NCBI GenBank assembly: GCA_002069815.1
Contig: MWCB01000004.1
Coordinates: 1-60,476 of the forward strand
DNA length: 60,476 bases
Source: Tenericutes bacterium ADurb.Bin239
Lineage (GTDB): Bacteria; Bacillota_I; Bacilli_A; RFN20; CAG-826
Reading direction: 5' to 3'
Position 1 is the first letter of the stretch. Every line of letters begins with the position of its first letter. Under the pieces are notes generated by a model, which was given only the letters and a program-made list of their open reading frames with translations, was not told the DNA's origin and searched no databases. The position numbers were made by a program, and so were the translations under genes. Below are positions 41,577 through 55,942 of the stretch, piece by piece.

Positions 41577-43039
41577 ATGTTTAAAAAAATATTTTATCGA
41601 CCCCAAACGGGCGTCTGCGCGGACTTTATTCCGTTTTACGACGAAGGCGAATTCAAACTATACTTTCTACGAGATTATCGGGACTTTGATAAACATGGTG
41701 AAGGAACACCATGGCAACTAACAGTTACCAAGGATTTAATTAGTTTTACCGATGAAGTTGAAGTTATTTCCCGGGGAACCAAAGAAGAGCAAGACTTATA
41801 TGTGTTTACTGGTTGTGTCAATAAGATTGATGGTAAGTATCACATCTTTTACACGGGCCATAACCCACACTTAAGAAGACAAGGTAAACCCGAGCAAGCA
41901 GTAATGCACGCTGTTAGTAAAGACGGGGTAAATTTTACTAAAATCCCCGCTGACACATTCTTCGCTCCTGGTGATAAATATGAAATGCATGACTGGCGTG
42001 ATCCCTTCATCTTTTTTGACAAAGATAAGGGACACTATGTTATGCTCTTAGCCGCCAGAACCAAAGAAGGACCAGCAATCCGGAAAGGGTGTACTGCGGT
42101 TTGTGTCTCGAAAGACTTAAAGAAATGGAAAGTCACGGGCAACATTTTAGAACCACGCGCTTTCTTCACTCACGAATGCCCTGATTACTTTGAAATTGGG
42201 GAATGGAAGTATATTATTTATTCCGAATTCAGTGATCGGTGTATTACTCGTTATAAAATGAGTAAAGATGGTGTTACATGGTTAACACCAAAAGTTGATA
42301 ACCATGTAACACCATCTTTACTCATTTTATAACGAGTAAAGATGGTGTTACATGGTTAACACCAAAAGTTGATAATTTTGATGGTCGCGCCTATTACGCC
42401 GCAAAAAGCGCCTGTAATGGTAAGAATCGTTATCTATTTGGTTGGATTCCCACTAAAAAAGATAGTGATCATGCTCACTGGGATTGGGGTGGTGATTTAG
42501 CAATCCATGAAATAATCCAAGGGAAAGATGGAACACTTTATACTAAGATGCCACGCAGCATTAAAGAATCGTTTACCAAAACATATTTAGATGTTAAAGA
42601 AATAGTACTGGGTACGGCGACCACTGATGAAGTTAAGACAATTATTAATCGTGAAATTGATGAATATTACTTAGAATGTGAAATTGAGTTTGATGAAAAT
42701 TTAACCGGTGTCGGACTCTTACTTAATTTTGATGAAGTAGCGGATCGCGGATACGGTTATACACTTAATTTATTTAATAATTTATTCGCATTTGATGTTT
42801 ATCCAAATCAGCCATGGAACTTAACAAACTTTATTAACGTACATCGTCCCCTTGAACTTAAACGCAAATATAAATTGCAATTACTTGTTGAGAAAAACAT
42901 TGCGGTTGCGTATCTCGACGATAAATATGCACTCTCCACTAGAATGTATCCGCTAGCGACACCAACCTTTAATTTAGGACTAATCGCTAAAAATGGAGTC
43001 GCTAAATTTAAAAACTTAAAAATTAAAACACGTAAATAA
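41577..43039 (+). pseudogene. Cytoplasmic divergent GH32-like hydrolase (paralog D), interrupted by a 74-nt foldback duplication
   Basis: There is no signal peptide. Motifs YRPQ...CADFIPFY, WRDPFIFF and HECPDYF. The ORF stops at TAA 42330-42332, inside the inserted segment. The remainder (FDGRAYY...YLFGWIPTKKD...WGGDLAIHE...) continues in the frame shifted by 2. Deleting 42302-42375 restores one 463-aa ORF. Confidence 0.8.
42247..42375. repeat. Foldback (inverted plus direct) duplication
   Basis: 42302-42336 is the exact reverse complement of 42247-42281 (35 nt). 42334-42375 is an exact direct copy of 42260-42301 (42 nt). The net insertion is 74 nt. Confidence 0.95.
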
Positions 43040-43063: not shown

Positions 43064-43987
43064 CTACCAATTTACTGTTATGTTAATGTCTTGTTTATAA
43101 TCACCAAAATTTGATCCAAAAAGATTGATGCCCCCCTTATATCGGGCATCATCTTGGACCCCGATTTTAAGCGAGAAGTAATGATTTTCTTTAATGTTTA
43201 ATTCATCAATAGTGACGTCACTCACTTTTATGTTATTGATAAAACAACCATTTTTAGTTACTTCCCAAGTTGTCAAGATGCCATATTGTGTTAATTCTTG
43301 TGGCCACCAACTTGGGTTTTGTTTTCCGGCGCGGCCCCCGAAGTCGCCGGGACTAGTCCATTCCCCAATTAAAACATTGTTAATCCATACTGAAATATCG
43401 GATTTCCAGTCATTACGATAGAAAGGAGCTTCGGAACAAACTTCAAATGAAACCGTTAATTTTTCAAGTTTGCGCGGCAGCATTTTATTACTAATCCAAT
43501 ACTCCAAGTAACCACTGTGAAACCAAATTAATCCAGCCTTATTTCGATCGGGATCAAAGAAACTAGTGTTGTCATTATCGTCATTTCCTAATTTGTGGGT
43601 TGAAGTAGCAATACCACAGTTTGGTTCAACATCAAAATTAACATAACTACCGATTGGAACTTTATATTTCATGGAGTGTTGAACGTTATCATATTCATGG
43701 AAAATATCAATAGTTACCTCATCACAGTTACGACTACAAATCTTTGATTTTCCGTTTCTTGTGTAAATTTCTTTAACTTCGATAAGTTCACAATCAGCAA
43801 GAACATTAACGTGAACCGAAGTTGAAGAAAGTGGTAATTCAAGCTTGTCTGATAGTTCTTTTACACTTAAGCTCGCAGTATTTAGAAGTTTTAAAATATC
43901 AAGACGTTCAGGCGAAGATAATGCACGTGCCACCTTTGTTAATTTCTTTTTGTCTTGGGCAAGCGATAGTTTTAAATTATTAATCAT
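43064..43987 (-). CDS. ArsR-type wHTH regulator fused to a roughly 200-aa beta-rich C-terminal domain
   Basis: The N-terminus ALSSPERLDILKLLNTASLSVKELSDKLELPLSSTSVHVNVL is ArsR/SmtB-like. The C-terminal half (WINNVLIGEWTSPGDFGGRAGKQNPSWWPQ...) is not a known effector domain that I can name. The gene is divergent from the GH2 operon. Confidence 0.7.
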   Translation of the reverse strand: MINNLKLSLAQDKKKLTKVARALSSPERLDILKLLNTASLSVKELSDKLELPLSSTSVHVNVLADCELIEVKEIYTRNGKSKICSRNCDEVTIDIFHEYDNVQHSMKYKVPIGSYVNFDVEPNCGIATSTHKLGNDDNDNTSFFDPDRNKAGLIWFHSGYLEYWISNKMLPRKLEKLTVSFEVCSEAPFYRNDWKSDISVWINNVLIGEWTSPGDFGGRAGKQNPSWWPQELTQYGILTTWEVTKNGCFINNIKVSDVTIDELNIKENHYFSLKIGVQDDARYKGGINLFGSNFGDYKQDINITVNW

Positions 43988-44042: not shown

Positions 44043-44103
44043 TACTACTACAAAAAAACTGAAGTAGTAAAAACGGAATAGTATTTCTTTTTGAATAACT
44101 ATT
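44043..44103. promoter_or_regulatory. Candidate operator region (two imperfect inverted repeats) between the ArsR-like gene and GH2
   Basis: tactactac-N9-gaagtagta (44043-44069, 1 mismatch) and aatagt-N15-actatt (44077-44103). No binding data exist. Confidence 0.3.
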
Positions 44104-44153
44104 GAGTTAATTTATATGTGATAATAAAATGAAACTGACGAAAGGGAAAGTGC

Positions 44154-45893
44154 ATGATAATTAGAAACGAATATCCGCGTCCAGAGTTTAAACGCGCAGT
44201 TTGGCAAACGTTAAACGGATTGTGGGATTTTGAATTTGATGACACAAATAGTGGGATAGCAAAAGGCTTTTACAAAGTAAGCCATTTATTATCTCGTAAA
44301 ATAGTTGTACCTTTTGCCTATCAAACGGAAGCAAGTGGTATTAATGAAACAGAAGATCACCCCGTTATGTGGTATAAAAAAACATTTACATTAGAGGAAG
44401 GACTAAAAGGCAAGAATATTCTTCTTACGTTTAATGCAGTTGATTATAGTGCCACGGTGTGGGTTAATGGCATATATGTGGGTGAACATCATAATGGTTA
44501 TTCACGATTTTCGTTTAACATCACGAAACTACTAAAACAAAAAGGTGAAAATGTCATTACCGTTCGCGTAGTGGATGATGTTGATGCGAATCAGCCGCGC
44601 GGCAAACAATCGTGGATTGGCGAAACACATCGCTGTTGGTATTATGCAACAAGTGGAATATGGCAAAGTGTATGGCTTGAAGCAGTCGGGGAAGATCATC
44701 TAGTAAAAACACTAATTGTCCCAAACATCGATAAAAATAATGTTTTATTTACTTTTGAAACAAATGGATGTGCAAGCGATATTGATGTTGAAATATCATT
44801 CAAAGGTGAAGTAGTTAAGAAAATTAAAAGTACACTTGATGGCAAGATTACTAAACTAACAGCGGAATTGTTGCCATATGACGCAATTGATGAAATTCAT
44901 TATTGGTCTCCTAATCATCCCAATCTATATCAAGTGAAATTAACACTCTACATGAAAAACAAAGTAGTAGATGAAGTTGATACTTACTTTGGGTTTCGAA
45001 AAATTTCACTTGATGGACTGGGGAATATTTTATTAAACAATCGCCCCCTTTATCAAAAACTTATCCTTGATCAAGGCTATTGGGCTAAAACTGGACTAAC
45101 ACCGCCATCACACGAAGCATTAGCGCATGATATTAGATTAGCAAAAGAAATGGGCTTCAATGGAGCGCGTAAACATCAAAAAATAGAAGATTCGTATTTC
45201 TATTATTACGCTGATAAATTAGGATTCCTCGTCTGGGCAGAAATGCCAAGCGGATATCAATATGACTATAAAGAAGTTAGTAAAGTTAGCAGCCAATTTT
45301 ATGATTTAATTATTCAACTCTATAACTTCCCTAGCATTATCACTTGGGTTCCCCTAAATGAGAGCTGGGGCGTTCGTAAAATACTCGTTAATAAAGAACA
45401 GCAAGCCCTAGGTAAAAGTTTATATTATTTAGCCAAAGCAATTGATCCCACGCGCCTTGTTAATATTAATGACGGCTGGGAAAATCCGTTGTTAACGGAC
45501 TTTATTTCAATTCATGATTATTCGCGTTATGGCGAAGATTTTGCTAAAGAAAGTTCAAAAGAGGGAGTAGTTAAAGCTTATCCAATGGGCCGCAAAACGA
45601 TTATTGGAACAGAATATAATCCCACTAAGCCAGTCTTAATCACTGAATTCGGCGGTATTTCTATTCGTGAATTCATGAAAAAAGATAATGATTGGGGCTA
45701 TGCTGGAAATGAAGACTTAGAAGGTTTTTATAAACGGTTTAAAATCCTTATGGATAATATAAAAGCTTCTGATATTCAGGGATATTGTTATACGCAATTA
45801 ACTGATGTTATGCAAGAAACAAATGGGTTATTAGACGCGAATCATAATCCCAAAATAAATCTTAAAAAAATTAAGGATATTTTAAATGGATAA
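44154..45893 (+). CDS. GH2-family glycoside hydrolase (cytoplasmic)
   Basis: Sugar-binding domain pattern VWVNGIYVGEHHNGYSRFSFNIT, catalytic acid region PLNESWG and nucleophile region LITEFGG. There is no signal peptide. Confidence 0.8.
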   Translation: MIIRNEYPRPEFKRAVWQTLNGLWDFEFDDTNSGIAKGFYKVSHLLSRKIVVPFAYQTEASGINETEDHPVMWYKKTFTLEEGLKGKNILLTFNAVDYSATVWVNGIYVGEHHNGYSRFSFNITKLLKQKGENVITVRVVDDVDANQPRGKQSWIGETHRCWYYATSGIWQSVWLEAVGEDHLVKTLIVPNIDKNNVLFTFETNGCASDIDVEISFKGEVVKKIKSTLDGKITKLTAELLPYDAIDEIHYWSPNHPNLYQVKLTLYMKNKVVDEVDTYFGFRKISLDGLGNILLNNRPLYQKLILDQGYWAKTGLTPPSHEALAHDIRLAKEMGFNGARKHQKIEDSYFYYYADKLGFLVWAEMPSGYQYDYKEVSKVSSQFYDLIIQLYNFPSIITWVPLNESWGVRKILVNKEQQALGKSLYYLAKAIDPTRLVNINDGWENPLLTDFISIHDYSRYGEDFAKESSKEGVVKAYPMGRKTIIGTEYNPTKPVLITEFGGISIREFMKKDNDWGYAGNEDLEGFYKRFKILMDNIKASDIQGYCYTQLTDVMQETNGLLDANHNPKINLKKIKDILNG

Positions 45894-46659
45894 AAATATT
45901 GGTCGTGTTTTTTCAATCGAAGAATTTAGTGTCTATGACGGACCGGGAATTAGAACTACTGTCTTTCTCAAAGGGTGCCCGCTCCAATGTGAGTGGTGTC
46001 ATAACCCTGAAGGCCGGATTTATGAAAAACAAGAAGTTCATGATCCCCGCACGGGAAAACTATTAAGAATAAGTGGTACTGATTACACTGTTGATGAATT
46101 AGTGACTAAATTACTCAAGAACGCAAAAGTTCTTAATATGAACGGGGGAGGTGTCACCTTTTCAGGAGGCGAACCACTCTACCAACCTGAATTTCTAAAT
46201 AAAGTGTTAATAAGACTAAAAGGGAAAGTTCATATTGCAATTCAAACCTCAGGATATGCGACGCAAGAAGTGTTTGAGGAAACACTTAAAAATGTCGATT
46301 TAGTGCTCTTTGACTTAAAGATTATGGATAACGAGCTTGCCCAAAAATTCCAAAAAGCAGATAACAGGGTTATCTTCAATAATCTTGAAGTATTAAAGAA
46401 AACAAAAGTACCATTTATTGCAAGAGTCCCGCTTATTCCTGAACTTACGGACACAGACGCGAACCTTTCCCAAATAGCGGAACTACTAGCGGATGCTAAA
46501 AACTTAATGATGGTTGAAATTCTTCCTTATAACAAAATGGCCGGAGCCAAACATCGCATGCTTGGGAAAAAATATGAACCACACTTTGATGAAAACAAAG
46601 AATTAAACTTAAATATAGAAATCCTTACGCGCAAAGGATTTAAAGTGAAGGTGAATTAA
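45886..46659 (+). CDS. Glycyl-radical-enzyme activating enzyme (radical SAM), short PflA-like form
   Basis: GIRTTVFLKGCPLQCEWCHNPEG carries CX3CX2C at 45976-45999, and the VTFSGGEPL motif is present. At 257 aa it has no Cys-rich ferredoxin-like insert. Its ATG overlaps the GH2 stop. Confidence 0.9.
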   Translation: MDKNIGRVFSIEEFSVYDGPGIRTTVFLKGCPLQCEWCHNPEGRIYEKQEVHDPRTGKLLRISGTDYTVDELVTKLLKNAKVLNMNGGGVTFSGGEPLYQPEFLNKVLIRLKGKVHIAIQTSGYATQEVFEETLKNVDLVLFDLKIMDNELAQKFQKADNRVIFNNLEVLKKTKVPFIARVPLIPELTDTDANLSQIAELLADAKNLMMVEILPYNKMAGAKHRMLGKKYEPHFDENKELNLNIEILTRKGFKVKVN

Positions 46660-46660
46660 G

Positions 46661-48709
46661 ATGAATGAAAGAGTTAAAGTAATTCTTGAGAGACTCCATG
46701 ACCGAAAGTATCGTGAACTTCGGGTTAATTATGAAGTTAATCTAGCAAGCGAGTACGCTAAAAAGAAAGTACCGTTTCCTTTACGCGCGAGCGATCGACT
46801 CCAAAAACTAGCCGAGGCCGAAAAAGCAATCGTATACCCAGGTGACAGAATTGGTTTTTATCGTACGATTCGCAACATTCCGAAAATATTAACCGATAAA
46901 GAGTTTGATGATCTTGGTAAAAAGTATTTCTTATTCGATGGTGCCCAAGTTGGTAATATCAGCAGTGATTATGAATATACTTTAAAAGTTGGTTTTGATA
47001 AACGGTTAGAAGAAGTTGAAACTCAGATAAAAAAGGCAAACACGAACGCTGAATTAAATGAATTAAAAGCAATGAAAGAATCAATTTTGGCCATTTATAC
47101 AATTGCTGACAAATATCGCGCTGCGTATAAAAACAATAAGGAAATGCGCGAGATTCTTACAAGAATACCGCGTAAAGGAGCCACAAGTTTTCATGAAGCA
47201 CTTGTGTTTTTACGCTTATTAAATTTCACCCTTTGGTTAAACGCTAATAAACATAATACCTTAGGGCGCTTTGATCAATACATGTATCCTTATTTCAAAA
47301 AAGATATTGAAAGCGGACGTTTAACCAAAGAAGAAGCGTTCGTATTAATTCAAGAATTTTTCCTCTCACTTAACTTTGATAGTGATTTATATCCTGGTGT
47401 GCAACAAGGGGATAATGGTCAAAGTTTAGTGTTAGGGGGCGTTGATTTAAAAGGTAAGGAAGCCTTTAATGAATTATCAAAATTATGTTTAGAAGCTTCT
47501 TTGGAGTTAAATCTCATTGATCCAAAAATTAATATGCGTGTTAGTGCAAACACTGCCGATAAATGGTTCCTACTTGGCACAAAGTTAACGAAAAAGGGTT
47601 TAGGATTCCCTCAATATTCAAATGATGATGTAGTTATTCCCGCATTAGTAAAGTGGGGCTACAAACTTGAGCATGCGCGCGACTATGTAGTGGCGGCTTG
47701 TTGGGAATTTATCATTCCAAAATATGCAATGGATATTCCTAATGTTGACGCTGTTAATTTTCCCGAACTTGTTAACAAAACGATTAAAGAAAAACTACTT
47801 GTTTCCAAAACATACGATGAGTTTGAAAAATATTTCAATCAAAACATTCATGGTGAAGTGGAAAGAATGGTAAAAGCTTACGGTAATTATTATATTATTC
47901 CGTCTCCCTTCCAATCTTTGCTAATGGATGGATGTGTTGAACGGCGGAAAGACATTAGTGAAGAAGCTCTTTATCAAAACTTTGGTTTCCATGGCGCTGG
48001 TATTGCTACTGCTGTTGATTCTTTAGCAGTTATTAAAAGCAAAATATTCAAAGAAGAGAAAATAAGTAAACAAGGTCTCATTGATGCCTTAAAGTCAAAT
48101 TATGAAGGGTATGAAGAGTTGCGTCACATCTTACAAAACGGTCCAAAAATGGGTAATAACGATGATGATATTGATGATATAGCGGTCAGAATGCTAGATG
48201 TGTACGCTGATGCATGTAGTAAATATAGAAATGCGCGCGGCGGAATTATCCGTCCAGGAACAGGAACGGCCATGTATTATATTTGGCACTCAGAGAGACT
48301 AGGTGCAACACCTGATGGTCGTAAAGCTGGCGAACCGTTTGGCGCTAACTATTCGCCATCCATTAATTCGCGCTTTAACGGGGTTCTTTCCGTTATTCAG
48401 TCATTTTCCAAACCAAATCTTGAAAGAGTGTGTAATGGTGGACCACTCACTTTAGAATTCCATGACACCGTCTTCCGCAATGAAGAAGGCGTTAGCAAAG
48501 TTGCTGCGCTCGTTCAAACATTTGTGAAACTTCGCGGACATCAATTACAACTAAATGCAGTTAATCGCGAAACATTACTAGATGCCCAAAAACATCCCGA
48601 AAAACATAAGAACTTAATCGTTCGAGTGTGGGGCTGGAGCGGGTATTTTAATGAATTAGACCCAGTGTATCAAAATCACGTTATTCAAAGACTTGAATTC
48701 TTACAATAA
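46661..48709 (+). CDS. Glycyl radical enzyme, PFL2/dehydratase-like clade, unusually short
   Basis: The C-terminal fingerprint NLIVRVWGWSGYF matches RVxG[FWY], with the radical Gly at residue 658 (48632-48634). A single-Cys loop VVAACWEF has Cys347 (47699-47701) and Glu349. It is 682 aa and starts 1 nt after the activase stop. Confidence 0.88.
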   Translation: MNERVKVILERLHDRKYRELRVNYEVNLASEYAKKKVPFPLRASDRLQKLAEAEKAIVYPGDRIGFYRTIRNIPKILTDKEFDDLGKKYFLFDGAQVGNISSDYEYTLKVGFDKRLEEVETQIKKANTNAELNELKAMKESILAIYTIADKYRAAYKNNKEMREILTRIPRKGATSFHEALVFLRLLNFTLWLNANKHNTLGRFDQYMYPYFKKDIESGRLTKEEAFVLIQEFFLSLNFDSDLYPGVQQGDNGQSLVLGGVDLKGKEAFNELSKLCLEASLELNLIDPKINMRVSANTADKWFLLGTKLTKKGLGFPQYSNDDVVIPALVKWGYKLEHARDYVVAACWEFIIPKYAMDIPNVDAVNFPELVNKTIKEKLLVSKTYDEFEKYFNQNIHGEVERMVKAYGNYYIIPSPFQSLLMDGCVERRKDISEEALYQNFGFHGAGIATAVDSLAVIKSKIFKEEKISKQGLIDALKSNYEGYEELRHILQNGPKMGNNDDDIDDIAVRMLDVYADACSKYRNARGGIIRPGTGTAMYYIWHSERLGATPDGRKAGEPFGANYSPSINSRFNGVLSVIQSFSKPNLERVCNGGPLTLEFHDTVFRNEEGVSKVAALVQTFVKLRGHQLQLNAVNRETLLDAQKHPEKHKNLIVRVWGWSGYFNELDPVYQNHVIQRLEFLQ

Positions 48710-48726
48710 AAAGGAGGGATTATGTT

Positions 48727-50253
48727 ATGCATAAACGCAAAACCTTATTTATTACCGGAGTACTTTTGCTTATGAGCACATTATCAGGCTGTAAAGTTAA
48801 TCCACAAGAAAGTATAAAGCAAAGCGAAGATATTGTGGAACTAGGCACAAAGTACAAGGTAATGGAGGATTATTTCTACAATCCTATGGTTATTGATTTC
48901 CGCATGGGTGATCCGTGGCTTTACTACCATGACGGTTATTATTACTATACGCAATCTGAAGGGACACGAGTCCGCGTTACCAAATCGCCATATATGACAC
49001 AATTAACATCCAATCCGAATGATGAAACACGGACTAAAATTTTATTCCGTCAAAAAAGTATTGATGTCGTTGAAATTTGGGCTCCTGAAATTTTCTTCTT
49101 TGAAGGACATTGGTATATTTACTTCACGGCAACTAAAGACGCTAAAACTGAAATTGAAAAAGATACTGGTCGCCGCACTTATGGGATGAAAAGCGTTACT
49201 GACGATGCCTTTGGCGAATGGGAAACCCCGGTTGAAATTAAATTACCAATGGATTATCGCTCAATTGACGCAACATTTTTAGATTATGATGGTCGTCAAT
49301 ACATTATTTGGTCAGGATGGCCCAACGCTGAAAATCTCAATTGGCGACAAAATCTTTATATTACTGAACTTGTAACTGGCAATCCACTTCTTGCTAAAAG
49401 TACCGCTGATACTGAACGGCACATTATTAGTGTTCCTCATTACGAATGGGAAAATTCAAGCATTTTCCAAAATGAAGGACCAAGTGCCATTATTTCACCA
49501 GATGGAACCCCGATTATTTTCTATGCTGGGAACTTCTCTGGTGATGATAGTTACTGTGTCGGCTATATTACTTTAACTGGGACAGACTTAACGAATTTTG
49601 ATCATTGGACCAAAAATCCCGAACCATTGATGGCAACTGATATGGCTTACTCGGAAATTATTGCGCCAGGTCATTGTTCAATTGTTAAGTCGCCCGATCA
49701 AACCGAATGGTGGATTATGTATCACTCGGCAAAATATTCAGGTGCGGGTTGGGACCGAATGGCCCGTTTACAAAAAATGGAGTGGGTTAACGGCAAACCG
49801 CATGTTGAAAAAATTACGAAGATTGCTGATCCTAATCCGCTCCCATCTGGTGAAGCAGGGGGACGTCAACGGCTTTATGAAGCAGAAGATGCGGTATTAA
49901 CCGAAGACTGTTTCGTTATTGATAAAGAAGGATACGCTGCTGGAGATAATGCTGTTTCCATTTCAGAAAATGGAAGTATTACCTTTGAAATTGGAGTACC
50001 AGCAAACGGCCCATATGTTGTCGGTATTCGTTTCTCAAACCGCGACTCTTCATTATTCAATATGAACGTCACGGTTAATGGTAATGAGATGCTTGTCTAC
50101 GCTCCGCGCACCCAATACGATGATTCCTTCACTATTGCCTATTTTTTCACCGATTTATACATCAAACGCGAAGGTTTAAACACAATTAGTATAAACGCTG
50201 ACCCAAGCATTTATATTGACTGTTTAATATTAGATTTAATGAATCATAAATAA
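48727..50253 (+). CDS. GH43-family lipoprotein with a C-terminal CBM6/35-like module
   Basis: Lipobox LSGC. GH43 pattern GDPWLYYHDGYYYY, IWAPEIFFFEGHWYIYF and NEGPSAI. The C-terminal module begins RLYEAEDAVL. Confidence 0.75.
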   Translation: MHKRKTLFITGVLLLMSTLSGCKVNPQESIKQSEDIVELGTKYKVMEDYFYNPMVIDFRMGDPWLYYHDGYYYYTQSEGTRVRVTKSPYMTQLTSNPNDETRTKILFRQKSIDVVEIWAPEIFFFEGHWYIYFTATKDAKTEIEKDTGRRTYGMKSVTDDAFGEWETPVEIKLPMDYRSIDATFLDYDGRQYIIWSGWPNAENLNWRQNLYITELVTGNPLLAKSTADTERHIISVPHYEWENSSIFQNEGPSAIISPDGTPIIFYAGNFSGDDSYCVGYITLTGTDLTNFDHWTKNPEPLMATDMAYSEIIAPGHCSIVKSPDQTEWWIMYHSAKYSGAGWDRMARLQKMEWVNGKPHVEKITKIADPNPLPSGEAGGRQRLYEAEDAVLTEDCFVIDKEGYAAGDNAVSISENGSITFEIGVPANGPYVVGIRFSNRDSSLFNMNVTVNGNEMLVYAPRTQYDDSFTIAYFFTDLYIKREGLNTISINADPSIYIDCLILDLMNHK

Positions 50254-50270
50254 AAGGAGGTAATGCATTT

Positions 50271-52520
50271 ATGAAAAGATTCTTTAAAAGATTGTCGACA
50301 TTATTAGTGCCCTTGCTCGTCATAAGTTTATCAGCATGTCGCACTAAATCATCATCGCGAGATGTCAGTCAACCTGTGTCAGAAACTTCAACCGTTGTTG
50401 AAGATTACTACACAATTAACGTTTCTTCAATTGCAACCGAAATGCTCGTAGATACGGAAATGGTGTTAAACCCAACCTTTACCAATTTGGGTGAACCCGC
50501 AACTCCAAACTACAAAGTTGAAATTTTGCAAGAAGGAACAACCGATGTTACCGCTGCAGTGTATACCGCGGCAACGAAAAAATTTGCCCCAACCGAAGTT
50601 GGAGTTTACGAGGTAACCTTTACTGTTCTTAATGATGAGGGCGAAGTCCTAGTCGTTAGTGGCGGAACAAGTTTCAGTGCTAAAGTAACGATTAACGTCG
50701 TTATTCAAAGTTTTGAACCACTAGCTTCCGCTGGACCTGATGTATCAATTGATGAATCTGGAGAAGTAGCAACGATCACCTTTGGTGATTCCTACCTCGA
50801 AGGGAATAAAATGATTACGAGTGGTCAATATAAGGTTACAGGTCTAACCTTCCAAGGTAACTATTCAATTACTTATAAATTAGGAAATGTTAGACATAGT
50901 GAAGCTTATCACGATCCCGCCTTCTATTTAGGGTGGACCAGAAATACAATTGATGCCCAAGACGACTGTTTTAAATTAAGTACGGGCGATGGCACCGTTG
51001 CAACCTGGATTTGGGGCGGAACAGGGTTAGCCGATCTTAGCAGTAACTTAGATCATGGCTGGTTCCATAATGTATGGTTTAATGCCCCTGGGTCAGTGAG
51101 TGATAATCAACCAATTGCTGGTGATCACTATATTACTTTTGAACGATTCATTAGTGAAGATGGTAAAGCAACATATGGGATCAAATATGACAATGTTGCG
51201 TTCAACTTCCTTGAAATCGGCAAAAACTTCACCGACTTATTATCAAATGTCTGGATTGAAGCGCATAATACTAGCGCGACGCTTTCGGTGGCAGGATATG
51301 GCGTCGTGAGCGACACGATTAGCCCAGAAGTAGTCCTCTCTTACCCAGAATATACAACCGAAGATACTATTCACTTACGTGGCGGGGCAACGATTACAGA
51401 TAATGGTGATTACGGACATCTCATCGTTCCTTATTTCACCGTTCTTGATCCAGAAGGCGAAGAAGTAGTCGTAACCCAAAATTCATTTGAACCAACCATG
51501 GTTGGTGATTATGAGGTTACTTGTAACGTTAAAGATATCGCGGGCAACACCGCTTCAGCGACTACCACAATTACCGTTACTGAACCAGAAGTCACGCTAT
51601 ATGTATTTGATTTAGATAATACAACGCCAGTGGCTCGTACTAATTCAGGCGTCATCTTATATTATGGCGTTACTTTAGAAGGCGAACCAGTTGCCGTCGA
51701 TAGTGTTCAAATCCTTAAAGGTGATACTTTAGAAACAGCAGTTGATGTCACAGCGGAAACTTACGAAATCGTTGAATCCGTCGACAAATCGCTAGCGTAT
51801 GAAGTGTTTACACCCAAAGAAGCTGGTATGTATTTACTCAAACTTACTGTTGGTGATACAGTCCGCACTAAACAAATTAATGTCACTGATAGTTGTGAAC
51901 AAGTATATGGTCAAAAATATTGGGAAAGCGCCTATGAAAACTTCATTATGGGTCGCGAAACCTATATCTACCGCAATGTCGGCGGCGGGAAAACAGTTGG
52001 GAAAGTTGGTAATGACTTCACCCGTAAAACAAACTGGACCATAAGTTTTGAAATTACTGATTTAAAATACGCAGCGCAAGGTAAATTTATGATCACAATT
52101 GGCGCTGGTAAAGCTGATGGTGGATGGGGCGGATGGGAAGACCTCGCTGTCGGCGGTAATGTTAACGATGATCTCTGGGGCTTTGAAACATGTACGGTCG
52201 GTGTTGGCTGGCAAACATATCAATGGCGTTCCAACTGGCAAGATAAGACGACCGAATTTATGCCAGACCCCGAAGATCCAACAGTTGGATGTGGACGTCC
52301 CGCTAGTGCGTATACGCAATATGGCACTGGCACCCACTCATACAAAATTGTTTGTAGTACAGATAGCGAAGGCGCTGTTACATATTCATTCTTTATCGAT
52401 GATATGCCAGAAGCAGTCCACCGTTTACCTGCTGCTCACAATGAAATTAACTCCACAGACTTTATGCAATTCTCATCCAACAGCATGAACGGAATTATTA
52501 CTAATTTCAAAATAGTCTAA
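50271..52520 (+). CDS. Large surface lipoprotein with Ig-like (DUF5011/Big-like) repeats and LamG-like regions
   Basis: Lipobox ISLSAC; 749 aa. It carries an Ig-like segment ...DNGDYGHLIVPYFTVLDPEGEEVVVTQNSFEPTMVGDYEVTCNVKDIAGNTASATTTITV. No catalytic motif was recognised. Confidence 0.55.
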   Translation: MKRFFKRLSTLLVPLLVISLSACRTKSSSRDVSQPVSETSTVVEDYYTINVSSIATEMLVDTEMVLNPTFTNLGEPATPNYKVEILQEGTTDVTAAVYTAATKKFAPTEVGVYEVTFTVLNDEGEVLVVSGGTSFSAKVTINVVIQSFEPLASAGPDVSIDESGEVATITFGDSYLEGNKMITSGQYKVTGLTFQGNYSITYKLGNVRHSEAYHDPAFYLGWTRNTIDAQDDCFKLSTGDGTVATWIWGGTGLADLSSNLDHGWFHNVWFNAPGSVSDNQPIAGDHYITFERFISEDGKATYGIKYDNVAFNFLEIGKNFTDLLSNVWIEAHNTSATLSVAGYGVVSDTISPEVVLSYPEYTTEDTIHLRGGATITDNGDYGHLIVPYFTVLDPEGEEVVVTQNSFEPTMVGDYEVTCNVKDIAGNTASATTTITVTEPEVTLYVFDLDNTTPVARTNSGVILYYGVTLEGEPVAVDSVQILKGDTLETAVDVTAETYEIVESVDKSLAYEVFTPKEAGMYLLKLTVGDTVRTKQINVTDSCEQVYGQKYWESAYENFIMGRETYIYRNVGGGKTVGKVGNDFTRKTNWTISFEITDLKYAAQGKFMITIGAGKADGGWGGWEDLAVGGNVNDDLWGFETCTVGVGWQTYQWRSNWQDKTTEFMPDPEDPTVGCGRPASAYTQYGTGTHSYKIVCSTDSEGAVTYSFFIDDMPEAVHRLPAAHNEINSTDFMQFSSNSMNGIITNFKIV

Positions 52521-52533: not shown

Positions 52534-54156
52534 ATGAGAAATAAATTTAGATTAACCTCATTATTATTACTCACGGGGGCCCTTGTGGCCCTCGTGGGGT
52601 GCACCACTACTGGTTCGGGTAGTGGCGGTCAAGGATCTCCTACGGGTAAGACTACCGTTTCACTGTGGGGTTGGGGAGATGAAAAGGAAGTCGAAGTATT
52701 CCAAAATTTACTTCGTAATTATAATTCAACTAATGAAGATAATATCTATGTTAACTTTGTTAAAAAACCAAGTAATAGTTACTATAGCGTTTTAGAAACG
52801 GCTTTAACTGGCCGCCAAGCACCAGACTTATTCTATTTAGGTGACTCAATGATTAAGCGGTTCACAGCCGCAGGTTATGTCCAAGAACTTGATCAATATA
52901 TTGCAACAAGTGAAATTATTGACATGGATGATATTTGGAGCACGCTCATGAAGCGATACCAATTTAATCCACAAACGTATCAATACGGACCAACGGAACA
53001 CATTTGGGGATTGCCAAAAGATATTGGTCCCACCGTTATTTTTTATAATGAGGACGCCTTCAGTGCTAAAGGAATCAGTGTTATAAGTGCAAAAGATGAT
53101 GATAACGATGGGGTTGTTAAAGTTAATGGCACTAATTATCCCGCGGTGGGCTATAACGATGAATTAAAAGTGTTTAATAATAAAATCGCGATGACCTTTG
53201 AAGAGTGTGATGTTTTATCGGCATTGCTCTCAAGTGGTAGTACAAACGCACGAACGCACCAAACTAAATGGGGTTTTTATTCAAATTGGTGGTTTTACGC
53301 AGGATGGAGTGTTGGCGGTGATGTTTTACACTTTAAAGAAACTGATGACCCAGCGTATAACGGTGGTTATTGGGAGTTCACTCTTGATGATACAAATCCA
53401 AACTATCGCGCCCTTAAAGATGTCACAGTTCACGGCAAAAACTATGTGAAAGGTCAATTTATTGATTATTATAGCCTTGCTTATTTAGCGGCAAATAAGA
53501 GTGTCGCTGATGCACATATAAATGCGGGCGAACTTGTTAAATTACCGTCAATGCGGGAAGTGTTTGATTACTGGTTAACTTACTTCAGCGGGGGCTTATC
53601 ACCAAAACCGGCTGATATTTCAACTGAACTGGCGCTCTTTACAAGTCAAGATGTAGCAATGTTTGTTGAGGGACGCTATGTTGTCCCCCAATTTAGAAGT
53701 GACGCTCAATTTAATTGGAACGTGGCGCCCTTACCGCGTCATAAAGATGGTGTTTCAGCTGGACATAGTGGCTCGATGTGTCTATCAATGTCTGTTCGTT
53801 CAAGCGTTAAAGAACAAGCTTTTAAAATTATTGAGTACTTATGCGGACCACATGGTCAAGATGCTTTAGCCGAAAGTGGCTTTAACGTTCCTAACCAAAT
53901 AAGTCTCGCTAGTGATCCAACAGCGAACTTCCTAAATAGTACGGAAAAACCACAAAACAATGAAATTTATCTTGAAGCCGCGGCGATTCAAAGAGGGGGC
54001 GACTGGACTTTCCTTGCGGATGACCGCTGGATTGAGATTTGGGCTCCCACTTTAAATGGCGACGTTATGAATGGGGTTAAAACGGTTGATCAACTATTTA
54101 GTCTTTACAAAGATCAAGTTAATGCCTATCTTAAACAATATACTGAGAAAAAGTAA
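52534..54156 (+). CDS. Family-1 carbohydrate ABC substrate-binding lipoprotein
   Basis: Lipobox ALVGC followed by a Gly/Ser linker; 540 aa. It is followed by MalF/MalG-type permeases. Confidence 0.8.
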   Translation: MRNKFRLTSLLLLTGALVALVGCTTTGSGSGGQGSPTGKTTVSLWGWGDEKEVEVFQNLLRNYNSTNEDNIYVNFVKKPSNSYYSVLETALTGRQAPDLFYLGDSMIKRFTAAGYVQELDQYIATSEIIDMDDIWSTLMKRYQFNPQTYQYGPTEHIWGLPKDIGPTVIFYNEDAFSAKGISVISAKDDDNDGVVKVNGTNYPAVGYNDELKVFNNKIAMTFEECDVLSALLSSGSTNARTHQTKWGFYSNWWFYAGWSVGGDVLHFKETDDPAYNGGYWEFTLDDTNPNYRALKDVTVHGKNYVKGQFIDYYSLAYLAANKSVADAHINAGELVKLPSMREVFDYWLTYFSGGLSPKPADISTELALFTSQDVAMFVEGRYVVPQFRSDAQFNWNVAPLPRHKDGVSAGHSGSMCLSMSVRSSVKEQAFKIIEYLCGPHGQDALAESGFNVPNQISLASDPTANFLNSTEKPQNNEIYLEAAAIQRGGDWTFLADDRWIEIWAPTLNGDVMNGVKTVDQLFSLYKDQVNAYLKQYTEKK

Positions 54157-55095
54157 ATGAAGTCAAAGCGTAAAAATTATAAACGACGAGAAGAGTTACT
54201 AGGAACCTTTTTTGCTTCACTCCCTGTTATAGGGTTCCTTGTTTTTGGTATAGTGCCGCTCGTCTTGTCGTTTATAATGAGCTTTTCTTATATGCCAAGC
54301 TTTGATATTAGAGCAATGAAGGTTTTAGAATGGGGGAAACTCTTTAATAATTATAGGACCGTTTTAACTGATCCACTTTTTTATAAGAGTGTTGGAAATA
54401 CACTTTACGCGGCTCTTGCTTTACCACTCTCAATTATCATTGCCCTTATTTTAGCGGTATTACTCAATCAAAAGATTAAAGGGAAAAAGTTTTACCGCAC
54501 CATCTTTTTTATTCCGTATGTATGTTCAATTGTAGCGGTCACCCTTATGTGGCGGACATTACTAAATCGAAACTATGGCGCTATTAACCAATTTTTAGGA
54601 CTATTTGGGATTGAACCAATTGCGTGGTTAACAGATGATCGTTTTTATATGCCCGCTATGATTTTAATGTCGATCTGGTGTAGTGTTGGTTTTAACTTAA
54701 TTTTATATTCAGCGGCATTAACAAACATTAGTCCGACAATTTATGAAGCGGCGGACATTGATGGCGCTGGTCCAGTTCGCAAATTCTTTAGTATAACGCT
54801 GCCATTATTATCACCGACAACGTTTTATTTATTTATTGTCGGTATGATTGGCGCACTTCAAGAATTTGTCCGTTTCCAGTCGATGAACGCTGTTAATAGT
54901 AGTTTAATTAGTCCAACTGGTCCAAATAATGCTGGACTGACAATAGTTTTCTATTTGTATAACCTTGCTTTCTCACAGGCCGGTGGACTAGGATTAGCGG
55001 CCGCAACATCATGGATATTAGCGATTATTACAATTATTTTGACAATATTCAGCTTCCGTATTTCCCGAAAGGCGATTTATTATGACCAGGCGTAA
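54157..55095 (+). CDS. Carbohydrate ABC permease (MalF/UgpA type)
   Basis: 6 TM segments and the EAA-loop region YEAADIDGAGPVRKFFSITLP. Confidence 0.85.
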   Translation: MKSKRKNYKRREELLGTFFASLPVIGFLVFGIVPLVLSFIMSFSYMPSFDIRAMKVLEWGKLFNNYRTVLTDPLFYKSVGNTLYAALALPLSIIIALILAVLLNQKIKGKKFYRTIFFIPYVCSIVAVTLMWRTLLNRNYGAINQFLGLFGIEPIAWLTDDRFYMPAMILMSIWCSVGFNLILYSAALTNISPTIYEAADIDGAGPVRKFFSITLPLLSPTTFYLFIVGMIGALQEFVRFQSMNAVNSSLISPTGPNNAGLTIVFYLYNLAFSQAGGLGLAAATSWILAIITIILTIFSFRISRKAIYYDQA

Positions 55096-55942
55096 AGTAC
55101 TTAAAATTGTTACCCATATTGTGCTTTCCTTAACCGCACTAGCGTATATTATTCCCTTTTATATTGTCTTTATTACTGCTTTTAAAGCTAATAACGCAGT
55201 TGCAACCGCGACCCCTTTTATTTGGTTTCCAGTTGGTGACCAATTAGGGGTTCAAGGATTTATTGATGTTTTTAAAACATATACGATTTTTTCCACTGGT
55301 AAATCAATGGTTGCCACTGGATTTAAAAACACACTTATTATTATTGTTCCTGTCATTGTGGGAGGGATGTTTAGTAGTAGTCTAGCGGCATACGCTTTTG
55401 CCAAAATGAAGTTTAGACTCAAAAAAGCAATGTTTACTACACTAATGTTTTCAATGATGCTGCCAGGTATAATCTTACTAATCCCCTCCTACTTTGTCTA
55501 CGATAATCTTGCGTTAACAAATACTTTTTTCCCACTGATTGTGCCACCGATGTTTGGTTCAGCTCTGGGGGTCTTTTTCTTAAGACAATATTACACAGGT
55601 ATTCCTGATGAATTACTTGAAGCAGCGAAGATGGACGGATTGGGACACTTTGGAATTTACTTCCGAATTGTGCTTCCACTTTCGATACCAGCCCTTATTG
55701 CCCAAGGTTTATTAGGACTTGTCGCGACATATAACGATTACCTAAATCCCTTAATTTATTTACTTGATGAAGAGAAATACACCCTTCAAATTGCGCTCTC
55801 AATGTTTGCGTCAGGGAACACTAATAGTCTCCATACCGTTATGGCGGGATCAATTATTGCGATGTTACCGATGCTTATTATTTACTTCTTACTCCAAAAA
55901 CACTTTGTGAATGGTTTAACAATGTCAGGAATGAAAGGATAA
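55082..55942 (+). CDS. Carbohydrate ABC permease (MalG/UgpE type)
   Basis: EAA loop LLEAAKMDGLGHFGIYFRIVLP. It overlaps the upstream permease by 14 nt. No cognate ATPase gene is present in the locus. Confidence 0.85.
   Translation: MTRRKVLKIVTHIVLSLTALAYIIPFYIVFITAFKANNAVATATPFIWFPVGDQLGVQGFIDVFKTYTIFSTGKSMVATGFKNTLIIIVPVIVGGMFSSSLAAYAFAKMKFRLKKAMFTTLMFSMMLPGIILLIPSYFVYDNLALTNTFFPLIVPPMFGSALGVFFLRQYYTGIPDELLEAAKMDGLGHFGIYFRIVLPLSIPALIAQGLLGLVATYNDYLNPLIYLLDEEKYTLQIALSMFASGNTNSLHTVMAGSIIAMLPMLIIYFLLQKHFVNGLTMSGMKG

Follow-up and report, generated by a model that had tools for sequence, protein, structure and literature searches.

A compact glycyl radical enzyme in a glycoside hydrolase operon of a Tenericutes bacterium and its predicted action on a free sugar

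Organisation of the operon

The window analysed here is a stretch of 60,476 nucleotides from Tenericutes bacterium ADurb.Bin239 (contig MWCB01000004.1). ORF coordinates define a tightly packed operon on its forward strand (44154-55942), with genes for a family 2 glycoside hydrolase (GH2), a radical-SAM activase, a glycyl radical enzyme (GRE), a GH43 hydrolase, an Ig-like lipoprotein and a sugar ABC importer. Every ORF was found at the position given in the original prediction.

The first gene (44154..45893, +) carries Glyco_hydro_2_N, Glyco_hydro_2 and Glyco_hydro_2_C domains and encodes a cytoplasmic, GH2_19-like member of the furanosidase group, on which no signal peptide was found. Its acid/base (N402-E403) and nucleophile (E498) are both intact, and its best PDB matches are 7XYR (335 bits), 7SF2 and the Streptomyces galactofuranosidase 9J6M/N. 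Furanose specificity is a trait of GH2 group III (PMC12243196, PMC11627007), and the enzyme is predicted to be of the alpha-L-arabinofuranosidase or beta-D-galactofuranosidase type. Lipoprotein signal peptides are found on three proteins encoded further along the operon. The surface GH43 (48727..50253, +; PF04616 at 7.5e-37, lipobox LSGC) matches 3K1U, 9NXJ, 3AKF, 5M8B and 5M8E, and appears closest to exo-alpha-1,5-L-arabinofuranosidases. The next product, a 749-aa surface protein (50271..52520, +; lipobox LSAC), probably binds glycans. It had been described as an Ig/LamG lipoprotein; the lipoprotein part of this call stands, but the domain is a weak Bact_surface_Ig-like match here (1.9e-4, below cut-off), and a clear Laminin_G_3 match is confined to orthologous loci, on proteins in the equivalent position of locus L087. 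The third is the 540-aa substrate-binding lipoprotein of a CUT1-type oligosaccharide ABC system (52534..54156, +; SBP_bac_1, lipobox LVGC), which is kept in syntenic loci. It is followed by genes for permease 1 (54157..55095, +; BPD_transp_1, UgpA/MalF-like) and permease 2, the last gene of the operon (55082..55942, +; BPD_transp_1, UgpE/MalG-like). An ATPase gene for the importer is not present in the operon.

The predicted coupling of the genes is borne out at each junction. The activase ATG (45886) precedes the GH2 stop (TAA, 45891-45893), giving an 8-nt overlap within AAATGGATAA, and the GRE ATG (46661) follows the activase stop (46657-46659) after 1 nt. The spacing between the GRE and GH43 genes is 17 nt and carries an AGGAGG Shine-Dalgarno sequence. 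Gaps of 17 nt (GH43 to the Ig-like gene), 13 nt (Ig-like gene to the binding-protein gene) and 0 nt (binding-protein gene to permease 1) follow, and the two permease genes overlap by 14 nt, in agreement with the close spacing (17 nt or less) claimed for this part.

Upstream lies a divergent gene for a 307-aa ArsR/SmtB-type HTH regulator (43064..43987, -; HTH_5/HTH_20 matches) with a C-terminal domain of about 230 aa of unknown function; an orthologous regulator occupies the same position in L001, L002, L004, L005, L083, L087 and L091. A consensus scan gave one weak promoter-like site, TTGAGT-17-TAAAAT (44102..44130, +), 24 nt 5' of the GH2 start, and a sequence scan gave no terminator-like sites of note inside the operon. 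Permease 2 is followed by rpmE and metG. A separate operon upstream (27766-43039) begins with a xylulokinase gene (27766-29259; 492 bits against the XylB equivalog, cut-off 380), next to which lies a divergent gene for a LacI-family regulator (26651-27685, -). This upstream operon, and not that of the GRE, holds the GH32-like hydrolases that had been put forward as partners of the GRE.

The GRE and its activase

The activase (257 aa; 45886..46659, +) matches Radical_SAM and Fer4_12 and scores 230.8 bits against TIGR02494 (glycyl-radical enzyme activating protein; cut-off 174). It has a DGPGIR motif and the cluster motif C31-x3-C35-x2-C38 (45976-45999). The auxiliary two-cluster ferredoxin insert is missing: the 75 aa that follow the cluster motif are free of Cys, whereas this stretch contains 7-10 in 41 of 59 clade activases. 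The GRE is compact (682 aa; 46661..48709, +), with PFL-like (PF02901, 1.5e-96) and Gly_radical (PF01228, 2.8e-21) matches. Its Cys loop, AACWE (47693-47707), contains Cys347 and Glu349, which align with Cys433 and Glu435 of glycerol dehydratase (GD), and its Gly loop, RVWGWSGYF (48623-48649), contains Gly658. Both loops are invariant, as is a flexible, Asn/Gln-rich loop, YPGVQQGDNGQS, at 47390-47425. These domains and motifs identify a genuine Cys-x-Glu GRE with its activase, as predicted.

Does this GRE belong to a characterised family? Membership of NCBIfam equivalogs was judged by bit scores against model cut-offs, and all of them score the protein far below: 332 against 678 for TIGR01774, 290 against 1109 for the PflD type (PflD/YbiW), 277 against 1100 for HypD, 278 against 1000 for HpsG, 247 against 1050 for CutC and 92 against 994 for PflB (TIGR01255). 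The best PDB sequence match is 1R8W (288 bits), followed by 8ID0 (281 bits). In Foldseek, the AF2 model (pLDDT 86) matches solved GREs with TM scores of 0.85-0.88 and 21-26% identity. With sub-cut-off equivalog scores and at most 26% identity to any solved GRE, the protein lies outside every characterised clade, and no published characterisation of its own clade was found in the literature accessible to the search.

Public annotation points to a pyruvate or 2-ketobutyrate formate-lyase, since 'pyruvate formate-lyase' and 'formate C-acetyltransferase' are among the source names. This reading is refuted at the sequence level by the PflB score and by a single Cys in place of the Cys-Cys pair; moreover, the PflB match is confined to the C-terminal part. 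Its probability is close to nil.

The best sequence and structure matches are the B12-independent GD from Clostridium butyricum (1R8W) and the GRE 1,2-propanediol dehydratases (5I2G, 9RCO). They share with the window GRE the barrel fold (TM 0.87), the Gly loop, the Cys-x-Glu Cys loop, the RFDQY and DGRK segments and a dedicated radical-SAM activase gene next door. A small-diol dehydratase acting on glycerol, 1,2-propanediol or ethylene glycol, as fermentation by-products of the released sugars, might be expected from these matches and the Cys-x-Glu motif, and a few loci do contain aldo-keto reductases or alcohol dehydrogenases. However, identity is only 24-26%, and the window GRE is about 100 residues shorter, with about 67 gone at the N-terminus. 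Sequence alignment to GD, on which our description of the pocket is based, shows N99, N199, N361 and G535 in the places of GD residues H164, S282, D447 and Y640. The steadiest neighbours of the clade are sugar porters and glycoside hydrolases, whereas microcompartment shell, aldehyde dehydrogenase and 1,3-propanediol dehydrogenase genes occur neither in the operon nor in the scanned flanking genes or recurrent neighbours. A small-diol substrate is, thus, distinctly unlikely. For GD itself the reading failed on the replaced contact residues, the TIGR01774 score and the sugar-type neighbours.

The remodelled pocket suggests a carbohydrate-like binding make-up. Trp348, the x of Cys-x-Glu, is specific to the family, and Arg531 is both family-specific and invariant. 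Because none of the candidate pocket residues varies (100% invariance) among 73 sequences with 45-63% identity to the window protein, a single substrate is likely throughout the clade.

Distribution and gene neighbourhoods of the clade

The GRE clade is present in at least 581 GTDB species from several phyla. The order GH2, activase, GRE, GH43, importer is found in eight related loci (L001, L002, L004, L005, L083, L087/88, L091), down to 52% GRE identity. The hydrolase neighbourhood is therefore conserved in related genomes and, with the GRE outside characterised clades, neither of the two findings that would have counted against the original prediction was made. The exact gene order holds only in one Bacillota sub-lineage; elsewhere the pair is accompanied by GH51, GH127 or GH27/36 and monosaccharide transporters. 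Recurrent neighbours across the clade are GH51, GH127, GH43, furanosidase-type GH2, GH27/36 and galactose mutarotase (GalM). Among the 49 long loci (at least 15 kb), 39 have sugar transporters and 45 have a transporter or one of these hydrolases. An MFS sugar porter directly adjoins the activase-GRE pair in 19 loci, and in 17 this place is taken by a CUT2 ABC system for monosaccharides. The order in L018 and L031 is CUT1 importer, GH51, LacI, activase, GRE; in L026 and L052, araD-araB-araA is divergent (head-to-head) from the GRE gene, and the L026 GRE operon includes an MglB-like binding protein. Sugar porters, mutarotase, furanosidases and araABD together fit the proposed sugar or sugar-derived substrate.

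The same neighbourhoods bear on a hydroxyproline-type dehydratase acting on Hyp from plant Hyp-rich arabinoglycoproteins, which had been raised as an alternative. HypD (trans-4-hydroxy-L-proline dehydratase, 6VXC) is also a Cys-x-Glu GRE eliminase (TM 0.85) and is abundant in gut anaerobes, and several loci encode GH127, GH43 and LamG proteins, the kinds employed on extensin arabinosides. However, identity to HypD is 22%, its equivalog falls short as given above, and the HypD activase model scores 210 against a cut-off of 425. The window GRE has no proline or P5C genes nearby; no proC, peptidase or amino-acid transporter is recurrent among clade neighbours, where sugar porters, GalM and araABD are found instead. 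The Opp-type importer cited in support of this alternative belongs to the upstream operon (27766-43039). Hydroxyproline is a highly improbable substrate.

Could the substrate be a sugar phosphate? PflD and YbiW (8ID0, 8ID7, 8YJO) are GRE isomerases, 1,5-anhydrohexitol-6-phosphate C-O lyases, in which the ring is opened via hydrogen abstraction at the carbinol carbon beside the ring CH2-O, with the Glu of Cys-x-Glu acting on the hydroxyl (PMC13450708). By analogy, a kinase would act first, and the GRE would then take a phosphorylated pentose, hexose or anhydro-alditol and cleave one of its C-O bonds. Consistent with this, the second-best sequence match, 8ID0, is PflD with 1,5-anhydromannitol-6-P. 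The later steps of the PflD/YbiW pathway use an aldolase and a reductase, and some clade loci also encode an aldolase and an aldo-keto reductase. FGGY kinases are encoded in 8 of 80 loci, and a HAD phosphatase gene lies immediately 3' of the GRE gene in L009, L011, L012, L082 and L090, an arrangement seen in several Bacteroidota loci; with these two features, a phosphorylated substrate is conceivable. The invariant Arg531 might also be counted in its favour, but the pocket is otherwise mostly Asn, Gln and Trp, with this one basic residue. Furthermore, identity to PflD/YbiW is 24-25%, and their equivalog scores well below cut-off. Their substrates are phosphorylated anhydro-alditols delivered by a PTS, whereas no PTS genes were found here and the neighbours are neutral-sugar porters, mutarotase and furanosidases; most operons, including that in the window, also lack a kinase. 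We consider this alternative unlikely.

A candidate radical cleavage of a neutral sugar

The gene content suggests an operon for the utilisation of furanoside oligosaccharides, namely arabinose- or galactofuranose-containing plant or microbial sugars, in a gut bacterium, with the oxygen-sensitive GRE probably catalysing a radical reaction of a new kind on a free sugar. The more specific proposal, to which we give a probability of about 0.42, is that the operon supplies a furanoside-derived monosaccharide and that the GRE performs Cys-x-Glu radical C-O cleavage of this neutral monosaccharide, most likely L-arabinose. Outside the cell, the GH43 exo-arabinofuranosidase-like and Ig/LamG-like lipoproteins would act on the glycan; the CUT1 importer would take up oligosaccharides, and the furanosidase-type GH2 would free the monosaccharide in the cytoplasm for processing by the translationally coupled activase and GRE. 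The activase would cleave SAM at its CX3CX2C [4Fe-4S] cluster and generate a radical on Gly658, from which a thiyl radical would form on Cys347. Cys347 would take hydrogen from a carbon that bears a hydroxyl group in a neutral sugar of galacto configuration, with D-galactose a possible substrate besides L-arabinose. Glu349 would deprotonate the hydroxyl, the ketyl radical would expel a neighbouring C-O substituent, and Cys347 would give the hydrogen back. Loss of a hydroxyl would make the reaction a dehydration, whereas loss of the ring oxygen would make it a PflD/YbiW-like ring opening (e.g., at C5-O5 of arabinopyranose, yielding a 5-deoxy-4-keto pentose); radical cleavage of a sugar-ring C-O bond has its precedent in PflD and YbiW (PMC13450708).

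Alternatively, with no net elimination, the GRE might be a radical epimerase or isomerase of a free sugar, acting for example at C4 to convert L-arabinose to D-xylose and D-galactose to D-glucose, with the products entering the xylose (XylA/XylB) and glucose routes. These are the C4 epimer pairs, which counts for the idea, and hydrolases of both the alpha-galactosidase-like and the arabinofuranosidase type are found in the clade. It would also suit the minimal Bacteroidota operons, which consist of a regulator, GalM, GH27/36/51, an MFS porter, the activase, the GRE and, in some cases, HAD and encode no further enzyme of catabolism, and the presence of XylB-equivalog kinases nearby, including that in the window. 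By contrast, GRE epimerases are not known (PMC13450708), an opposite-face hydrogen donor is not obvious with just one Cys in the Cys loop, and the kept glutamate of Cys-x-Glu points to ketyl/elimination chemistry. Epimerisation therefore seems rather unlikely.

Another possibility is that the GRE works alongside the hydrolases and cleaves a glycosidic or ether bond that they cannot cut in an oligosaccharide or glycoside, by C2 hydrogen abstraction and expulsion of the C1 aglycone. The 1,2-elimination chemistry is formally identical, the GRE gene lies between those of the cytoplasmic GH2 and the exported hydrolases, and oligosaccharides enter through the CUT1 system of the operon. Against this, the adjacent MFS and CUT2 transporters are of the monosaccharide type, the active site is invariant despite differing partner hydrolases, and GREs have buried active sites that are shaped for small substrates (PMC13450708). 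Such a role is very unlikely.

For the favoured C-O cleavage of a monosaccharide, a downstream route is suggested by loci with extra genes. Some encode an SftI/FucI-like isomerase, an XylB-like FGGY kinase, a class II FBA-type aldolase, an aldo-keto reductase and DeoC; there, an aldo-keto reductase or alcohol dehydrogenase could reduce the deoxy-keto sugar, with isomerisation, phosphorylation by the FGGY kinase and cleavage by the aldolase to follow. The isomerase/kinase/aldolase set is limited to 3-5 loci, where it may act on a different sugar. L-Arabinose is not the sole candidate, because an arabinofuranosidase-type hydrolase is found in only 18 of the 49 long loci, and others have GH36-like or GH78 enzymes.

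Arabinan and arabino-oligosaccharide operons of Bacillus subtilis and Geobacillus stearothermophilus comprise araNPQ-abfA with araABD and araL. They share with the window operon a surface or exported arabinanase or arabinofuranosidase, a CUT1 ABC importer and a cytoplasmic alpha-L-arabinofuranosidase, and with some clade loci a HAD phosphatase and, in L026 and L052, adjacent araABD. In contrast, the cytoplasmic furanosidase of the window is a GH2 of group III and not a GH51, and the activase-GRE pair, which they lack, is inserted in the window operon. The AraABD route already serves L-arabinose and co-occurs with the GRE in L026 and L052, which counts against an oxygen-sensitive alternative for that sugar.

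The operon and its glycyl radical enzyme pair

On the ORF map, the genes between 44154 and 55942 form a head-to-tail block on the forward strand. The block runs from a GH2 glycoside hydrolase gene (44154-45893) through genes for a radical-SAM activase (45886-46659), a glycyl radical enzyme (GRE; 46661-48709), a GH43 hydrolase (48727-50253), a 749-aa protein (50271-52520) and a substrate-binding protein (52534-54156) to two permease genes (54157-55095 and 55082-55942). The GH2 and activase genes overlap by 8 nt, with the activase ATG lying within the final GH2 codons (AAATGGATAA), and the GRE gene starts after a gap of a single base. Beyond the GRE the gaps are, in order, 17, 17, 13 and 0 nt, and the two permease genes overlap by 14 nt. 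The original prediction, made from the sequence alone, had given the same junctions (the overlap of activase start and GH2 stop, the 1-nt gap and later gaps of 17 nt or less), and its family assignments of the operon genes are borne out by Pfam and NCBIfam. Lipoprotein signal peptides are present on the GH43 hydrolase, the 749-aa protein and the binding protein; the GH2 has none and is therefore taken to be cytoplasmic. The gene for an ArsR-type regulator of 307 aa (43064-43987) is divergent from the operon. A promoter-like site at 44102-44130 is weakly indicated by a scan, promoter and terminator scans gave results no better than shuffled sequence, and no Rfam element was found in the operon leader.

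The GRE contains a PFL-like barrel domain (PF02901, 1.5e-96) and, C-terminally, a Gly_radical domain (PF01228, 2.8e-21). Its glycine fingerprint, RVWG658WSGYFNELDPVYQNHVIQR, agrees with the superfamily pattern RVxG[FWY]x6-8[IL]x4Qx2[IV]x2R. Conservation was assessed in an alignment of 73 members of the surrounding clade, 45-63% identical to the window protein, in which the fingerprint residues R655, W657, G658, W659, S660, Y662 and F663 are invariant. The Cys loop reads AAC347WE349; Cys347, also invariant, aligns with Cys433 of the B12-independent glycerol dehydratase (GD) of Clostridium butyricum and with the catalytic Cys of the PflD-type structure 8ID0. The Cys-x-Glu motif C347-W348-E349 is likewise present and invariant. 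Glu349 aligns with GD Glu435, and on this alignment it would contact a substrate hydroxyl (PMC13450708). The motif, the two domains and the adjacent activase agree with the proposal that this is a GRE pair of the Cys-x-Glu type.

The activase has a DGPGIR motif and a CX3CX2C motif (C31PLQC35EWC38), and scores 230.8 against TIGR02494 (cut-off 174). Among 80 loci carrying relatives of the window GRE, ORF clustering places an activase next to the GRE in at least 54, and tblastn finds an activase homologue in 74. Two further ORF clusters beside the GRE in high-GC loci (13 and 38) were rejected as antisense artefacts over the activase gene. The window activase is without the auxiliary ferredoxin-like insert (about 30 aa with two CX2CX2CX3C motifs). 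An insert with 7-10 Cys is found in 41 of 59 clade activases, including those of the closest GTDB relatives (loci L001 and L002), and 16-18 others, mostly from Bacteroidales, are also without it (0-2 Cys). The auxiliary Fe-S clusters have been lost repeatedly within one GRE family, the window activase being among the cases, and this repeated loss of the domain is a natural experiment on the purpose of those clusters.

A compact clade distinct from characterised enzymes

Does the window GRE belong to a characterised family? Identity was tested with NCBIfam equivalog HMMs at their curated cut-offs, and the scores fell short for TIGR01774 (PFL2/glycerol dehydratase; 332.3 bits, cut-off 678.2), the PflD-type/YbiW model NF007437 (290 bits, cut-off 1109), HpsG (277.7 bits, cut-off 1000), HpfG (252.7 bits, cut-off 1000) and CutC (247 bits, cut-off 1050). 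The hydroxyproline-type substrate that the original prediction had offered as an alternative fares no better: HypD (NF043068) reaches 277.5 bits where 1100 are required, the HypD activase equivalog 210.5 where 425 are required, and the neighbour census contains no proline or peptide genes, so that a hydroxyproline dehydratase is highly improbable. Pyruvate or ketobutyrate formate-lyase activity was rejected in the same manner. PflB (TIGR01255) reaches 92.1 bits against a cut-off of 994.2, and the AACWE loop has a single Cys in place of the adjacent Cys-Cys pair of PFL; the chance that the enzyme is a PFL is close to nil. In contrast to PflD/YbiW, no PTS genes were found when the genes near the operon and the recurrent neighbours were scanned.

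The top PDB sequence matches to the GRE are GD (1R8W, 288 bits) and the PflD-type 8ID0 (281 bits). A structure search gave no ranking of the known GREs, since every solved one lies equally far away (21-26% identity). With solved eliminases and isomerases of the superfamily, the confident AlphaFold (AF2) model (pLDDT 86, pTM 0.87) aligns at TM 0.85-0.88. The window GRE is short, with 682 aa versus 765-850 in characterised relatives, and about 67 N-terminal residues are absent. Relative to GD, His164, Ser282, Asp447 and Tyr640, which there serve in glycerol binding and protonation, are replaced by Asn99, Asn199, Asn361 and Gly535, the X of Cys-x-Glu is Trp (Trp348), and of the glycerol-site residues only His281 is retained, as His198. 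Asn99, Asn361 and Gly535 are invariant in the 73 clade members and Asn199 is found in 69 of them. With the GD residues replaced and the gene context against it, a small-diol dehydratase is a rather improbable reading. Membership of a characterised clade, on which the original prediction could have foundered, was not found: all equivalogs are below cut-off and the GD site residues are replaced. Judged from sequence, the window system is a bona fide GRE and activase of a distinct compact clade, with a different predicted pocket and a new physiological setting.

How widespread is this clade? In a protein search, homologues of 678-692 aa form an unbroken series, and public sources label them as nothing more than 'pyruvate formate-lyase' or 'formate C-acetyltransferase'. 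When each GTDB species was represented by one genome, at least 581 relatives were confirmed. Among the matches listed are members of Bacillota, Bacteroidota, Verrucomicrobiota (including an Akkermansia MAG), Kiritimatiellia, Lentisphaerota and Spirochaetota, and the closest GRE relatives among them belong to MAGs of uncultured gut Bacillota and of Erysipelotrichaceae. The gene is also carried by cultured bacteria such as Hungatella hathewayi DSM 13479, Acetatifactor aquisgranensis, Diplocloster modestus, Enterocloster hominis and Clostridium symbiosum. No published work on this clade was found in the literature searched, and an earlier mention in a similarity network is possible. A June 2026 review of the GRE superfamily covers six C-O eliminases, CutC, three C-S lyases and three isomerases, and includes no enzyme of this clade; GREs are among the most abundant enzyme families of the gut microbiome, and whole clades are still unassigned (PMC13450708). 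If the clade acts on a free neutral sugar, thousands of 'pyruvate formate-lyase' annotations would be corrected.

In the 73-member alignment, 131 of the 682 positions are at least 97% conserved. The invariant candidate pocket residues are N99, W192, H198, R203, D205, Y244, Q248, D251, N252, Q254, the AACWE loop, N361, R531, G533, G535, M538, Y540 and N563. Such an invariant candidate pocket argues for a single substrate, or a narrow substrate class, across the clade. The loop YPGVQQGDNGQS (residues 244-255, window 47390-47425) is almost fully invariant across phyla, yet nowhere else inside the AlphaFold model does pLDDT drop below 50 (here at residues 245-251). In the model it is a candidate substrate lid, which may become ordered upon substrate binding.

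Gene neighbourhood, candidate substrate and possible chemistry

The GH neighbourhood, whose absence from related genomes would have told against the original prediction, is conserved. The order ArsR / GH2-activase-GRE-GH43 (one or two copies)-Ig/LamG-binding protein-permease-permease recurs in loci L001, L002, L004 and L005 (GRE 58-63% identical to that of the window), L083 (98%), L091 (57%) and L087/L088 (52%). In other lineages the partners differ, but they too serve carbohydrate use. Loci from Bacteroidota combine AraC or GntR with GalM (galactose mutarotase), GH36-like and/or GH27 enzymes, GH51, an MFS sugar porter, the activase and the GRE, often with a HAD phosphatase after the GRE and GH127 nearby. 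Lachnospiraceae loci contain an oligosaccharide (CUT1) importer, GH51 (495 aa), LacI, the activase and the GRE; in other Clostridia and spirochaetes, LacI and a monosaccharide (CUT2) ABC system accompany the pair. In five loci from Prolixibacteraceae and Paludibacter (L009, L011, L012, L082 and L090), a 150-160-aa HAD phosphatase of the MDP-1/Acid_PPase type starts 5-10 nt past the GRE stop, beside an enzyme that an MFS porter feeds.

Context was counted in 49 loci of at least 15 kb. A sugar transporter is present in 39 of these, a listed GH in 29, an arabinofuranosidase-type GH in 18, and a transporter or GH in 45. The clade is tied to loci for the use of plant arabinan and arabinogalactan and of microbial furanosides. 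When the other neighbours were surveyed, nothing further recurred, and genes for microcompartments or for proline or peptide use were absent; by Pfam, the 86 operon neighbours still unannotated are heterogeneous, with no additional recurrent partner. Minority neighbours are a glycerate kinase (L058) and a GH78 rhamnosidase (L017, L042 and L054).

Which sugar is the likely substrate? The window GH2 is nearest to 7XYR (GH2_19; 335 bits), scores 232-234 bits against 9J6M/N, the GH2_18 beta-D-galactofuranosidase of Streptomyces, and reaches at most 100 bits with other GH2 enzymes. Its acid/base (N402-E403) and nucleophile (E498) are intact. The GH2_18/19 subfamily assignment follows PMC12243196, and group III GH2 enzymes act only on furanosides, namely alpha-L-Araf and beta-D-Galf (PMC12243196, PMC11627007). 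The window GH2 is thus a predicted group III (GH2_18/19) furanosidase, and the GH43 is nearest to exo-alpha-1,5-L-arabinofuranosidases. In general, GH51 enzymes act on alpha-L-Araf, GH127 on beta-L-Araf, and GH27/36 on alpha-D-Gal or beta-L-Arap; the recurrent hydrolases of the other loci (GH51, GH127, GH27/36) therefore all release L-arabinose or the stereochemically equivalent D-galactose. GalM also recurs. In L026 and L052 the GRE stands head to head with araD-araB-araA (AraA 722, cut-off 622; for the AraD family the L017 member was scored, giving 390 with a cut-off of 389), and the L026 GRE operon encodes an MglB-like binding protein.

Together, the hydrolase specificities, GalM, araD-araB-araA and the MglB-like protein make L-arabinose the leading candidate, with D-galactose or galactofuranose second. 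Support is moderate because loci with GH78 or with GH36 only exist and because the CUT2 transporters score below cut-off for all of the RbsB, AlsB, YtfQ, XylF and MglB equivalogs. The earlier idea that the substrate comes from the co-encoded hydrolases fits the sugar-related context seen across the clade, although the GH32-like enzymes that it included lie outside the operon. Cleavage at the level of the oligosaccharide is improbable, since both the monosaccharide transporters and the invariant site speak against it. A phosphorylated substrate would be in keeping with the HAD phosphatase, the kinases and Arg531; however, no PTS was found among the genes scanned and a kinase is absent from most operons, which makes this reading unlikely.

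In GRE eliminases and isomerases, the carbinol carbon loses a hydrogen to the thiyl radical and its hydroxyl loses a proton to Glu; the ketyl radical so formed then drives out a leaving group next to it (PMC13450708). The retention of Cys-x-Glu places the window enzyme with this group. Compared with GD, the pocket is enlarged by the Tyr640 to Gly replacement, is rich in Asn and Gln, and has an extra Trp beside the catalytic Cys; these substitutions suggest the usual make-up of a neutral-sugar site. The clade may represent the first GREs whose direct substrate is a common aldose without a phosphate, namely L-arabinose and/or D-galactose set free by furanosidases and enzymes of the alpha-galactosidase type. 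On such substrates the reaction would be new for GREs: it could be dehydration, radical epimerisation at C4, or ring opening by C5-O5 lysis, which would give a 5-deoxy-4-keto sugar. We give this tentative reading a probability of about 0.35.

Dehydration would yield a deoxy-ulose. Ring opening of the PflD/YbiW type would proceed by H4 abstraction and C5-O5 cleavage to a 5-deoxy-4-keto pentose, and it fits because in a pentopyranose the C5 ring CH2-O adjoins the C4 carbinol, a local arrangement shared with C1/C2 of 1,5-anhydro-hexitols. Once reduced, the product would be a 5-deoxy-aldose suited to the FucI/SftI-like isomerase, FGGY kinase and class II FBA/TBA-type aldolase of L023, L030, L058 and L069; no solved relative of the SftI-like isomerase was found. 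The same product would be in keeping with the alcohol dehydrogenase and aldo-keto reductases encoded in L017, L054 and L061. Aldolases of the FBA/TBA type have 3S specificity, which agrees with the C3 configuration that L-arabinose would pass on, and the expected end products would be DHAP and acetaldehyde. As these genes occur in only a handful of loci, the downstream route is hypothetical. A C4 epimerase, converting L-Ara to D-Xyl or D-Gal to D-Glc, would neatly explain the minimal operons and XylB-type kinases, but it has no GRE precedent and no second hydrogen donor is visible; as a reading of its own it is doubtful.

In the Diplocloster modestus locus (L061:4045-11989), the genes directly upstream of the activase and GRE encode LacI, a Zn-dependent alcohol dehydrogenase and an FGGY kinase, a bona fide DeoC (229 bits, cut-off 117), and lastly an aldo-keto reductase together with a small cupin-like protein. 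This gene set, which the other loci did not show, hints at a deoxy-sugar aldolase route. A DeoC-based 2-deoxypentose route for the clade was rejected: DeoC occurs only in L061, and the stereochemistry of L-arabinose does not lead to 2-deoxy-D-ribose.

To our knowledge, the recently found 'anhydroglycolysis' enzymes are the only GRE carbohydrate chemistry described so far. If a free neutral sugar is the substrate, the clade would extend that chemistry and add a radical, oxygen-sensitive branch to anaerobic pentose and hexose catabolism. With a free aldose, this would be a previously unrecognised anaerobic pentose/hexose route in at least 581 bacterial species of gut, rumen and sediment.

The upstream operon and other features of the window

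The GH32-like hydrolases and Opp-type importer originally counted among the partners of the GRE belong to a separate upstream operon (27766-43039). Its first gene matches the xylulokinase equivalog (492 bits, cut-off 380) and adjoins a divergently encoded LacI-family regulator gene (26651-27685). The operon also encodes three divergent GH32/GH43-like five-bladed-propeller lipoproteins, two lipoproteins of 495 and 282 aa without a family match, and the Opp-type ABC importer (SBP_bac_5, oligo_HPY), and it probably serves the uptake of a furanosidic oligosaccharide. A tblastn search of the 80 loci found none of its proteins (GH32-like, SBP_bac_5 or those without a match) near other clade members, which sets the upstream operon apart from the GRE system.

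Two gene calls in this operon differ from those in the 98%-identical locus L083. The GH32 gene at 41577-43039 is split into two ORFs (251 and 163 aa) in the window and is intact, at 462 aa, in L083. What splits it is a perfect palindrome of 57 nt at 42301-42357 (ACCATGTAACACCATCTTTACTC...GAGTAAAGATGGTGTTACATGGT), which duplicates about 33 codons in another frame; this is either a genuine inverted duplication or an error of the assembly. The ORF at 38489-40525, called mechanically from a TTG, has 678 aa, and its L083 orthologue is called at 667 aa. The lipobox MSAC lies about 35 residues in, and the true start is probably downstream of 38489.

The window opens next to the replication origin, with dnaN, a small S4-like gene, recF, gyrB and gyrA at 212-8321. 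A T-box leader (8355-8550; 93.8 bits against a gathering score of 93) precedes the gene for seryl-tRNA synthetase, and a small SRP RNA is found at 9880-9966 (59.3 bits). Most genes are on the forward strand, and GC skew is positive across most of the window, turning negative only near 24-26 kb.
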